Source: Alphaproteobacteria bacterium
Lineage (GTDB): Bacteria; Pseudomonadota; Alphaproteobacteria; CAAHEQ01; UBA3637
Assembly: GCA_045118155.1 (NCBI GenBank)
Contig: JBGUXS010000014.1
Span: 18,630 to 82,629, forward strand
Length of the DNA: 64,000 nt
Direction: 5' to 3'
Shown: positions 18,735 to 21,312 of the stretch, one piece after another
How positions within the stretch are numbered: the stretch's first letter is position 1
How the letters are laid out: every line of letters starts with the position of its first letter
Program-made: the position numbers and the translations under genes
The notes under the pieces: model-generated
The model's input: the letters and a program-made list of their open reading frames with translations, nothing else
Database searches by the model: none
Told to the model about the DNA's origin: nothing

Positions 18735-18828
18735 ATAAGGTATTATCTGTTTTATCCCCCCGTCATCACAGGCGGGGGGATAAATAATACTTGCCAAGGC
18801 GAAAAAGTTCCTTTATTCTGCTTGTCAA

Positions 18829-19028
18829 GGCAGGGTGGTGTCTGCCCCGAGGGTTCAAAGCCTCTTCTGTGGTTGCCGAGTACCATCGGCGTAAAAACTC
18901 CTTCTGGTCTATGACTGGAAGGAGGCTAATAAGTTAAAGGGATCACTCCCTTTTCAACAAATACGCCCACTATTCCACAGAGTAGCTTTGAACTTCCAGT
19001 CGCCTTTTACACCAAAGGCGATTTTTTC
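18829..19028 (+). promoter_or_regulatory. highly structured leader RNA / candidate ncRNA (long-range P1 helix enclosing three hairpins, ends in terminator before the methyltransferase RBS)
   Basis: 18853-18861 pairs 18985-18993 (GTTCAAAGC/GCTTTGAAC), 18867-18872 pairs 18975-18980; internal hairpins 18875-18890, 18898-18924, 18937-18952; upstream hairpin 18829-18846. Confidence 0.5.
19001..19028 (+). terminator. intrinsic terminator 14 nt upstream of methyltransferase SD/ATG
   Basis: CGCCTTT-TACACC-AAAGGCG followed by ATTTTTT. Confidence 0.65.
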
Positions 19029-19042
19029 GTTGGAGGGGAGTA

Positions 19043-19996
19043 ATGGGAAACGCAAATCTTACCAGAGCTAAAAAAGAAAAAGAAGATGAATTTTACACGT
19101 ATTACGAGGACATTAAAAAAGAACTAGATAATTATGCGAAATATTTTAAAGGAAAAGTCATTTATTGTAATTGTGATGACCATTATGGGATTGGATTGGG
19201 AACGCCTAAATCCAATTTTATTAAGTATTTGGCGGATAATTTTGAAGCGTTTGGCATCAAAAAATTAATTGCCACCCATTATGAAAAAGAAAAAGATCGT
19301 TCCACGATGTATATTCTAAATAAGGATAACACGGGGGATGGAATCATTTGTTTTGAAGATATTGAAGAAATTCCTATGCAGGGCAATGGGGATTTTAGAA
19401 GTGCCGAATGTATAAAACTTTTGGAACAGGCCGATATTGTGATTACCAATCCGCCTTTTCCGCTGTTCAGAGAATATGTCGCACAGCTAATGGAATATAA
19501 GAAAAAATTTCTGATTGTTGGCCCCGATGATTGCATAACATATAAGGGAATTTTTCCCTTGATTAAAGAAAATAAAATTTGGCGTGGGTTTCATCATGTG
19601 AAACAATTTACTAGGCCAGATGGTTCTATAAAAAAATTTGGGAATGTTAGTTGGTACACAAACTTAGAAAATAGCCGAAAAAATGAATTTTTAAATACAG
19701 GGAAAAAATATCACGGATATGAAGATATGTACCCCAAATACGATAATTATGAGGCCATCAATATAGATAAAGTAGCTGATATTCCGATGGATTATGACGG
19801 GGTTATGGGAGTGCCTATTAGCTTCTTAGATAAATACAATTCCACACAATTTGAGATTATTTCAGCAAACGATGTTAGGACATCTGCTAATGTACCTATA
19901 AAAAAGCATGGTTTAATTAAAGATAAAGAGGGAAAAATCACAAAGTTGGGAAAGATAAAATTCGCTCGCGTTCTTATCAAAAAGAAAAAATCATAA
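19043..19996 (+). CDS. N6-adenine DNA methyltransferase, EcoRI-methylase family (NPPF motif)
   Basis: N-terminal KKEKEDEFYTYYEDIKKEL...VIYCNCDD and IVITNPPF, GNVSWYTNLE, MGVPISFLDKYN closely recall M.EcoRI (from memory); 317 aa; A+T-rich codon usage. Confidence 0.7.
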   Translation: MGNANLTRAKKEKEDEFYTYYEDIKKELDNYAKYFKGKVIYCNCDDHYGIGLGTPKSNFIKYLADNFEAFGIKKLIATHYEKEKDRSTMYILNKDNTGDGIICFEDIEEIPMQGNGDFRSAECIKLLEQADIVITNPPFPLFREYVAQLMEYKKKFLIVGPDDCITYKGIFPLIKENKIWRGFHHVKQFTRPDGSIKKFGNVSWYTNLENSRKNEFLNTGKKYHGYEDMYPKYDNYEAINIDKVADIPMDYDGVMGVPISFLDKYNSTQFEIISANDVRTSANVPIKKHGLIKDKEGKITKLGKIKFARVLIKKKKS

Positions 19997-20009
19997 AAGG
20001 AGAATCATC

Positions 20010-21245
20010 ATGAGTATGAAAGCAACGTTATATGAAATTTCTATCCGCGATTTAGTGGCGGGTTATCAAGATAAGGGGGAAAATGGGGTCGTGGCCTATG
20101 GGGGGCGATTAAATGTGCGCCCCGCTTTTCAACGGGCCTTTGTCTATAACCCCGAAGATCGGGATAAAGTCATGCAAAGTGTTTACAATAATCTGCCCCT
20201 AAATAGTATGTATTGGGCAAGAAATCCAGATGGCACGTATGAAGTCATTGATGGGCAACAGCGGATTATTTCTATTTGCCAATTTATGACCAATAATGAC
20301 GGAAATGGCAATCCGATTGCCATTGATTTTAATGGTAAGCACGCCCAAACAATTGAGGGAATAAAACAATCGGTCCTTGAAAAGTATGCAGAAATGAATA
20401 ATTACAAATTGCAAGTTTATATCTGTGAAGGAACGGATGATGAAAAATTAGATTGGTTTCATACCATTAATATTGCGGGCAAACAAATGACAAACCAAGA
20501 ATTGATGAACGCTAATTATACGGGGAAATGGCTAACAGATGCAAAATCCTTTTTTTCAAAGAAAAATAACAATGAAGCCATTAATTTAGCGTATTATGGT
20601 AATGATGATAAAAAAACATTACTCAGTCTTTCGGGGGATAGAGTTTTGGGGGATTTAGGAACCCTTAAAGATAGGGCTAATCGGCAATTGCTTTTAGAAT
20701 TGGCCTTAACGTGGCGCATTGATGCCGATATAAAAACATATCCCCGTGTTCAAGATTATATGGCTAAACATCGGGATGATAAAAATGCGGATGAGTTGAT
20801 AACCTATTTTAAAAATGTGATTGCGTGGGTCAAGCAAACCTTTCCCACATATCGGCCGGATATGAAGGGACTAGAATGGGGTCTTTTATATAACAAATAT
20901 CATACGCAAACATACCAGATAACAGAAATTGAAAAAACGTTGTGCTATCTTTATGATTTATACGCCGAAGACCCAGATGGATTAAAGAAAATGGGCTTTT
21001 ATGAATATTGTTTGTCCGGGGATAGAACCCTGATTTGGCACCGGGCGTTTAGCGAAAAACAACAAAAAGAAGCTTACAAAAATCAAGGGGGAAAATGTGC
21101 CAGATGTCATGATCCGTTCCCCCTAAATAAATTACAAGGGCATCATAAAGTTGCTTTTGCCAAAGGGGGAGAAACGACAATTAAAAATTGTGTGATGCTC
21201 TGTGATAATTGCCATAAAGATCTGCATGCCGAAGAAAAGGACTAA
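20010..21245 (+). CDS. DUF262 (ParB/GmrS-like, DGQQR motif) - HNH endonuclease fusion protein
   Basis: RPAFQRAFVY...IDGQQR N-terminal DUF262 signature; C-terminal CARCH...HH...N...CDNCH HNH motif; 13 nt downstream of the methyltransferase on the same strand. Confidence 0.7.
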   Translation: MSMKATLYEISIRDLVAGYQDKGENGVVAYGGRLNVRPAFQRAFVYNPEDRDKVMQSVYNNLPLNSMYWARNPDGTYEVIDGQQRIISICQFMTNNDGNGNPIAIDFNGKHAQTIEGIKQSVLEKYAEMNNYKLQVYICEGTDDEKLDWFHTINIAGKQMTNQELMNANYTGKWLTDAKSFFSKKNNNEAINLAYYGNDDKKTLLSLSGDRVLGDLGTLKDRANRQLLLELALTWRIDADIKTYPRVQDYMAKHRDDKNADELITYFKNVIAWVKQTFPTYRPDMKGLEWGLLYNKYHTQTYQITEIEKTLCYLYDLYAEDPDGLKKMGFYEYCLSGDRTLIWHRAFSEKQQKEAYKNQGGKCARCHDPFPLNKLQGHHKVAFAKGGETTIKNCVMLCDNCHKDLHAEEKD

Positions 21246-21257
21246 AACCGAAAAATA

Positions 21258-21283
21258 AATCCCTTGGCAAAAAGGGATTTTTC
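21258..21283 (+). terminator. intrinsic terminator after the methyltransferase-nuclease pair
   Basis: AATCCCTT-GGCAAA-AAGGGATT + TTTTT. Confidence 0.7.
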
Positions 21284-21312
21284 CCCTATACTTATTGTAA
21301 AAAGGAGGGGTT

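Follow-up and report, generated by a model that had tools for sequence, protein, structure and literature searches.

What kind of system is formed by the two co-oriented, A+T-rich genes that lie between thrS and a two-component operon in a member of the Alphaproteobacteria (GenBank assembly GCA_045118155.1, contig JBGUXS010000014.1), and how might its expression be set? We addressed this question in a stretch of 64,000 nucleotides (positions 18,630 to 82,629 of the contig), hereafter the window; coordinates refer to the window, and comparison loci are given by L numbers. A preliminary description had read the pair as an adenine methylase and a nuclease, and had left two options for their joint function: a restriction-modification (R-M) system with a novel nuclease, or a modification-sensing defense module with its own protective methyltransferase. 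The former is better supported by our analysis, and we consider it likely that the region from about 18791 to 21245 is a mobile Type II R-M cassette consisting of a promoter, a leader, a methylase gene and a nuclease gene. The region 18790-19042 is no empty spacer and holds the predicted promoter and a structured leader RNA of the cassette. The elements of the cassette are the following.

18791-18819, plus strand: predicted cassette promoter, TTGCCA-17 nt-TATTCT, at the left edge of the mobile unit.

18826-19036, plus strand: structured leader RNA of type A, ~210 nt, recognized by folding, covariation and a covariance model.

18998-19030, plus strand: intrinsic terminator of the leader, with the stem AGUCGCCUUU/AAAGGCGAUU followed by a U-run, ending ~12 nt before the methylase ATG.

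19043-19996, plus strand: EcoRI-family N6-adenine DNA methyltransferase of 317 amino acids (aa), with its NPPF catalytic motif at 19448-19459.

20010-21245, plus strand: predicted DUF262(ParB-like)-HNH restriction endonuclease of 411 aa, recognized by PADLOC REase_II and by Pfam DUF262 and HNH.

20115-20519, plus strand: DUF262/GmrSD_N (ParB/Srx-like) domain of the nuclease, with RPxxQR at 20118-20135, DGQQR at 20250-20264 and DEKxxWFHTINIxG at 20439-20480.

21096-21233, plus strand: zinc-ribbon HNH nuclease domain, with residues C363, C366, H379, N393, C398 and H402.

Both open reading frames (ORFs) are intact, and ORF calling reproduced their coordinates, their shared orientation and the 13 nt that separate the methylase stop from the nuclease ATG, all as given earlier; the nuclease gene is preceded by the ribosome-binding site (RBS) AAAGGAG. 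Profile searches against Pfam and PADLOC upheld both domain assignments, and all peptide motifs quoted in the preliminary description are present at mapped residues. The first protein is indeed an EcoRI-family adenine methylase, matching PF13651 (EcoRI_methylase) over its full length (positions 1-345 of 345, E=2.4e-104) as well as PADLOC MTase_II (PDLC03297, E=7.5e-100). Its motifs fall at aa 15-24 (DEFYTYYEDI), 39-46 (VIYCNCDD), 132-139 (IVITNPPF) and 255-266 (MGVPISFLDKYN), with the catalytic NPPF intact at aa 136-139. The second protein carries the two domains proposed for it, PF03235 (GmrSD_N/DUF262) at aa 36-170 (E=1.7e-21) and PF01844 (HNH) at aa 363-408 (E=7e-11), with the motifs DGQQR (aa 81-85), CARC (363-366), GHHK (377-380) and NCVMLCDNCH (393-402). 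No match to PF07510 (DUF1524) was found in it with Pfam at E<=0.1.

The strongest profile match of the nuclease is to PADLOC REase_II (PDLC03418, E=2.6e-96), which aligns aa 3-399 with profile positions 1-363 of 372; the profiles for DUF262 defense proteins (NsnA, PD-T4-2) and for Type IV enzymes are weaker by at least 70 orders of magnitude and cover single domains. Because the REase_II profile covers the nuclease end to end, the gene pair is a member of a widespread and already catalogued Type II R-M family, bearing in mind that PADLOC profile labels are annotations, not experiments. We found 5,909 homologs of the nuclease at E<=1e-5, full length and with the DUF262 plus HNH architecture throughout. 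In a 40-member alignment extending down to 50% identity, the motifs RPxxQR, DGQQR and DEKxxWFHTINIxG are invariant, as are the HNH residues C363, C366, H379, N393, C398 and H402; the catalytic core is thus intact, with H379, N393, H402 and four cysteines invariant across the family. An AlphaFold2 (AF2) model of the nuclease has a pLDDT of 76.7. A search of the PDB with the family profile detected none of its DUF262 proteins at the sequence level, and we found no paper, solved structure or named prototype enzyme for the methylase-linked DUF262-HNH family in the literature searched. We rejected an RNA-guided enzyme as an alternative identity, the match to the NCBIfam profile 'guided_IscB' being weak (E=3.7e-4, far under the cut-off) and limited to the HNH domain.

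A neighborhood survey covered 27 genome loci encoding relatives of the nuclease, drawn from Alphaproteobacteria, Bacteroidales, Firmicutes and Treponema, and a methylase homolog lies directly upstream and on the same strand in 25 of these; the two exceptions are one contig edge and one partial nuclease. The paired identities to the window proteins drop in parallel, such that methylases at 73-80% accompany nucleases at 70-75%, those at 58-62% accompany nucleases at 63%, and those at 38-46% accompany nucleases at 38-40%. The pair is also found on plasmids of many phyla, annotated as a 'DUF262 domain-containing protein' together with an 'adenine-specific methyltransferase EcoRI family protein'. 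Among the 50 full-length plasmid homologs of the methylase listed, 34 are found in a record that also encodes a DUF262-HNH nuclease, as opposed to just 6 carried by EcoRI-type plasmids (one such plasmid was inspected, and there R.EcoRI adjoins the methylase). Given these proportions, the DUF262-HNH nuclease is, to judge by co-residence, the usual partner for this branch of EcoRI methylases. The earlier expectation that such methylases normally partner PD-(D/E)XK enzymes therefore does not hold for this branch, and neither does the view that the architecture is non-canonical, given a full-length REase_II profile, thousands of homologs and the linkage just described.

Two comparison loci bear on how the partners depend on one another. 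L010 is 96-97% identical to L005 and has suffered two deletions: one of 121 bp, which frameshifts its methylase, and a second of 177 bp, which removes the 3' end of the methylase together with the RBS and start codon of the nuclease, the nuclease ORF being otherwise intact. This joint decay, in a single metagenome-assembled genome (MAG), is what would be expected if an active nuclease cannot be kept without the methylase. L019 departs from the parallel divergence, with a methylase 61% and a nuclease only 46% identical to those of the window, which suggests an exchange of partners within the family. Compared with window positions 19334-19996, the methylase of L039 (2-736) has a different middle segment and different C-terminal ~45 residues, despite a nuclease that is 97% identical to that of the window. 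Across cassettes, the methylases can as a rule not be aligned over their last ~40 residues, suggesting that the C-terminus is a replaceable module.

In the mechanism that we propose, the methylase would place N6-methyladenine on a short specific site and so shield host DNA, and the nuclease would cut unmethylated copies of this site through its HNH (beta-beta-alpha-metal) center. The DGQQR-bearing ParB-like domain, by analogy, may bind nucleotide and/or DNA and thereby gate or position the nuclease. The ParB-like DUF262 domain acts in this manner in the GmrSD relatives BrxU and SspE (PMC10952713).

A number of points weigh against a Type II cassette. An invariant motif of the NTP-binding type such as DGQQR is unexpected in an orthodox Type II enzyme, and nucleotide dependence is possible. 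The characterized DUF262 nucleases in the literature surveyed are modification-dependent or modification-sensing, and reviews of DUF262 name only GmrSD, BrxU, SspE, Menshen, Dazbog and PD-T4-2. The comparison loci are for the most part contigs from MAGs or metagenomes, and the decay of L010 is one case only. No palindrome is consistently depleted in all carriers when Markov-corrected counts are compared across the window and 17 host loci, so the site cannot be inferred in this way. Finally, no recombinase, terminal repeats or target duplication that could account for its mobility was found at the cassette.

In a rival reading, the nuclease could be a GmrSD-like Type IV enzyme that attacks modified phage DNA, with the methylase serving some other function or placing a self mark that is ignored. 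We regard this as improbable. The DUF1524 C-terminus is absent and a zinc-ribbon PF01844 HNH domain stands in its place; REase_II is the strongest profile by 70 orders of magnitude; and the family profile does not extend to the PDB DUF262 proteins. The methylase is linked in 25 of the 27 loci, co-diverges with the nuclease, and overlaps it or lies 13 nt away, and in L010 the loss of the methylase was accompanied by loss of the nuclease start codon. Linkage, co-divergence and the joint decay in L010 also make the earlier alternative, a modification-sensing module with its own protective methylase, less likely than the R-M system.

Comparison with known systems places the cassette more precisely. 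The window nuclease and methylase match PADLOC REase_II and MTase_II, respectively, end to end and belong to the family of this pair, for which that library supplies a label only. With the EcoRI system the cassette shares the methylase family (PF13651) and the form of a two-gene Type II module, and the full-length window methylase has 43.7% identity to the one that adjoins R.EcoRI on an E. coli plasmid. However, the ParB-like plus HNH nuclease is unrelated to R.EcoRI (the 'type-2 restriction enzyme EcoRI' of that plasmid), and the gene order is methylase then nuclease in the window but nuclease then methylase on the E. coli plasmid. R.EcoRI is a PD-(D/E)XK enzyme. Since the nucleases are unrelated, the window cassette is not the EcoRI system proper.

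With GmrSD, BrxU and SspE the nuclease shares an N-terminal DUF262 ParB/Srx-like domain, the invariant DGQQR and a C-terminal His-Me-finger nuclease (PMC4619093, PMC10952713). Those proteins have DUF1524, whereas the window nuclease has the zinc-ribbon HNH; its family is ~410 aa long as against 580 for BrxU (chain 7p9k_A); and it is methylase-linked, while GmrSD-family Type IV enzymes stand alone. Lacking DUF1524 and being linked to a methylase, the window nuclease is not a GmrSD-type enzyme. A third point of comparison is provided by the HNH-type Type II restriction enzymes, such as KpnI, Hpy99I and PacI, and by McrA-type nucleases, with which it shares the beta-beta-alpha-metal HNH center with CxxC...CxxC zinc ligands. 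To our knowledge, none of these has a ParB-like nucleotide-binding domain.

The palindrome counts yielded some observations about the hosts. GAATTC is mildly under-represented in the window (12 observed vs 19 expected), and identity of ~44% to the M.EcoRI-type methylase does not settle the specificity of the window methylase. TCGA occurs 5 times in the 64 kb (15225, 25840, 45909, 55581 and 58060) vs ~92 expected, with three of the five sites inside the three tRNA genes, and twice in L003 vs 21 expected. Other cassette hosts lack such depletion, which is thus host-specific and suggests that this lineage has been under a distinct restriction pressure of the TaqI (TCGA) kind. Most of the alphaproteobacterial MAG loci related to the window (L001-L012, L014-L019) show a ~3- to 4-fold depletion of GATC, compared with only ~1.7-fold in the window.

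Is the cassette resident or acquired? Homologous cassettes with 70-75% protein identity occur in no fewer than 8 unrelated settings, and neither the thrS nor the Hpt flank of the window recurs at any of the 27 loci. In L001, from a MAG, the cassette follows secE-nusG-mscL and precedes rplK-rplA-rplJ-rplL-rpoB; in the window just 104 bp separate the neighboring genes nusG and rplK, and no cassette occupies this site. Other close copies occupy the fba/infC interval (L057, L059), lie beside exbBD and uvrD (L055), are found by tRNA genes (L004, L009) or have yet other neighbors. Similarity between cassettes begins at the promoter 5' of the leader and ends at the nuclease stop codon. Judged by this distribution, promoter, leader, methylase and nuclease travel together between unrelated sites as an autonomous, horizontally mobile cassette of ~2.45 kb (about 18791-21245). 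On a separate note, the cassette adjoins infC in L057 and L059 (6277-6828) and thrS (16794-18734) in the window. InfC is the usual neighbor of thrS in many bacteria, and the resemblance may be a coincidence or a neighborhood preference.

At the thrS locus itself, L039 (~90% DNA identity) has the same methylase-nuclease-Hpt arrangement as the window. L031, a metagenome contig from the same species (Ga0310695_10003872, 28.6 kb, 98.8% identity), stops precisely where the cassette borders on its downstream flank (window 21312), which fits strain-level presence or absence breaking the assembly. An empty thrS-Hpt site was accordingly not found in close relatives, of which the closest either carry the cassette or stop at its edge. 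Among more distant relatives, L033, L034, L037 and L038 have no cassette beside the Hpt operon, and the genes are thus not ubiquitous at this locus.

It could be argued that the two genes are simply resident in this lineage and that their A+T bias is ordinary local variation. The shared gene order in L039 fits such a view, as do the failure to find flanking repeats and the fact that other parts of the window are equally A+T-rich. The bias on which the preliminary description based its proposal of an A+T-rich insertion is real (G+C content of 0.361 vs a window mean of 0.416 +/- 0.026, with only 2.6% of 2.2-kb windows as low); it is also modest, and the stretches at 15.0-16.7 kb and 26.7-28 kb equal the cassette in this respect. 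Residence in the lineage is nevertheless very hard to reconcile with cassettes of 70-75% protein identity found in 8 or more unrelated contexts, with others on plasmids across many phyla, with their absence by the Hpt operon in more distant relatives, with a nusG-rplK site that is filled in L001 and empty in the window, and with a same-species assembly that breaks precisely at the cassette edge; we give it next to no weight. The earlier proposal of acquired DNA is supported by the range of contexts and by the absences beside the Hpt operon.

The immediate surroundings of the cassette belong to the host. Upstream lies thrS, whose threonyl-tRNA synthetase product shows the TGS, tRNA_SAD, class II core and anticodon-binding domains in Pfam, separated by 308 nt from the methylase; downstream come an Hpt-like ORF, an OmpR-type response regulator gene and a histidine kinase gene, in this order. 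Two further hairpins flank the cassette.

18751-18784: terminator hairpin of thrS, 6 nt before the cassette promoter.

21257-21280, no strand assigned: hairpin 3' of the nuclease stop, overlapping a promoter-like site of the Hpt operon at 21264-21292.

The second of these is counted as a host-side junction and not as a conserved part of the cassette, because cassette similarity stops at the nuclease stop codon and this stretch is common only to the near relative L039. A similarity between the promoter-like sites at 18791-18819 and 21264-21292 was considered and dropped, as it was unsupported by a repeat search. Elsewhere in the window, an A+T-rich gene (15334-16476, G+C content of 0.35) for a fusion protein of a family-2 glycosyltransferase and a GtrA-like membrane domain directly follows tRNA-Ser (15160-15246) and may be another acquired segment.

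The new observation about the cassette is its leader. The minimum free energy of the RNA is -84.9 kcal/mol (z=-5.55 vs shuffled sequence), and each of the 11 other close cassettes with upstream sequence has the leader, at 75-83% identity, immediately 5' of its methylase gene, whatever the context. In the resulting 12-sequence alignment the -35 CTTGC and the -10 block are positionally conserved, and 18791-18819 would accordingly be expected to have promoter activity. The fold predicted with RNAalifold consists of a 5' hairpin, two long-range helices that close a junction of 3-4 hairpins, and then the terminator, the stem of which is invariant in 12 of 12 copies. Compensatory changes on both sides were seen in nine of its 60 pairs, a single position having as many as four pair types; 99% of cells in the alignment are paired, and 42 cells have double changes vs 12 +/- 2.8 after shuffling (0 of 500) and 0-11 when the register was shifted. 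This covariation rests on sequences that are 75-83% identical. Several invariant G-U pairs assign the leader to the plus strand. At every type-A locus, 21-29 nt separate the terminator from the methylase start.

A covariance model of the 12 copies recovered the leader at 243-256 bits, again directly 5' of the methylase gene, in six additional, independent loci retrieved later, such that the type-A leader is present in 18 of 18 close cassettes. Mean DNA identity is 79.5% for the leader, 76% for the methylase gene and 70% for the nuclease gene. Within the leader, the helices vary and the junction and loop nucleotides are invariant. The two long-range helices (window 18855-18861/19003-19009 region; alignment columns 32-38/187-193 and 46-48/177-180) each come in 3-5 discrete compensated 'alleles', which reassort independently among near-identical leaders, as if by recombination between cassettes.

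Searches beyond the cassette family returned no known RNA. The leader has no match among the 4,227 families of Rfam at gathering or permissive thresholds, and we treat its sub-threshold matches to PyrR, microRNA and snoRNA families as noise. In plasmids and phages blastn found nothing, and 15 exact 16-mers shared with viral contigs were set aside as chance, none of those contigs having the remainder of the leader, a methylase of this kind or its nuclease. The interval 18735-19042 contains no ORF of 60 aa or more and no small helix-turn-helix (HTH) controller gene. A leader peptide was also rejected, since the sole short ORF in the window copy has no conserved start codon in the other copies. 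In the literature searched, no R-M operon with a structured, terminator-bearing leader was found described. Within Rfam and this literature, such a leader is therefore new for R-M operons.

Cassettes of two other clades carry structured leaders of different sequence at this position. A type B leader (L014-L016) folds with z=-6.4, has a second helix that is fully compensated between copies, and places its terminator 27-32 nt before the methylase ATG. A type C leader (L021, L025 and L026) has z=-8.2 and 13 compensated pairs, with a terminator-like hairpin further upstream. Rfam contains no match to either type at gathering or permissive thresholds, and the type-A covariance model fails to pick them up; homology of either to type A was thus rejected. 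One plasmid copy of the cassette has a MerR-family gene at the leader position.

How might such leaders act? As the gap of ~12 nt between the type-A terminator and the RBS leaves no room for a promoter, every methylase-nuclease transcript should pass through the leader terminator. Because every transcript must read through it, the leader would set, limit or switch expression of the whole operon. In its general plan, a multi-helix conserved domain abutting an intrinsic terminator and then an RBS, it resembles a terminator-type riboswitch or attenuator; comparison with Rfam riboswitches and energy calculations identified no ligand and no convincing antiterminator. A candidate antiterminator is provided by the invariant GACUGGAAG (3' arm of hairpin P4), which is perfectly complementary to the invariant CUUCCAGUC overlapping the 5' arm of the terminator, and an analogous complementary pair, GGUCGGGGUG and CACCCCGACC, is found in type B. 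As to the effector, our best guess is feedback by one of the two proteins, which is more likely than a metabolite because three unrelated leaders serve one cassette family with conserved proteins.

Against a regulatory leader of this kind stand two observations. Forcing the antiterminator to pair carries a penalty of +13 to +18 kcal/mol without disrupting the whole terminator; the complementarity is real, and being energetically unfavorable it gives us no grounds to claim a switch. In addition, 9 of 26 cassettes have no structured leader. The fullest version of the proposal, in which the leader represents an undescribed class of cis-regulatory RNA (ligand- or protein-responsive) that controls the operon through transcription termination, three structurally analogous but sequence-unrelated versions have been recruited by one R-M family, and the cutting of unmethylated sites by the Type II-like nuclease is gated by nucleotide binding to its ParB-like domain, is put forward only as a tentative possibility.

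Some of the same data could be read as evidence for a stand-alone small RNA, or for a cofactor or inhibitor of the nuclease, with the genes expressed only by incidental read-through. The leader is a complete unit from promoter to terminator, its terminated fold is strongly favored, by 13-18 kcal/mol over the alternative pairing, its conservation equals or exceeds that of the coding genes, and the combination of variable helices with invariant junction and loop nucleotides is usual for protein-binding RNAs. Yet the space between terminator and RBS is too small for a promoter, making this RNA the 5' part of any operon transcript; in the limited space searched, it was never found away from the cassette; and the cassettes of other clades function without a type-A leader. 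We consider a stand-alone RNA unlikely.

Taken alone, the gene pair is routine, being another copy of a widespread and catalogued R-M family. What the family offers is the setting of a DGQQR ParB-like module, previously studied only in GmrSD, BrxU and SspE, in a classical methylase-protected system, making it a good place to test the role of this module, for instance in nucleotide-gated clamping or activation. The leader bears on a different issue. How nuclease expression is timed or limited in newly arrived R-M cassettes is a long-standing question, to which the usual answers are C proteins, repression by the methylase of its own gene, and antisense RNA. These devices likewise place a regulatory element directly 5' of the first gene; C-protein-controlled systems have an HTH controller gene in the space where the window cassette has an RNA leader. 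If our interpretation is true, a 210-nt terminator-bearing leader in every close copy, together with two other leader types, would represent a different regulatory solution.

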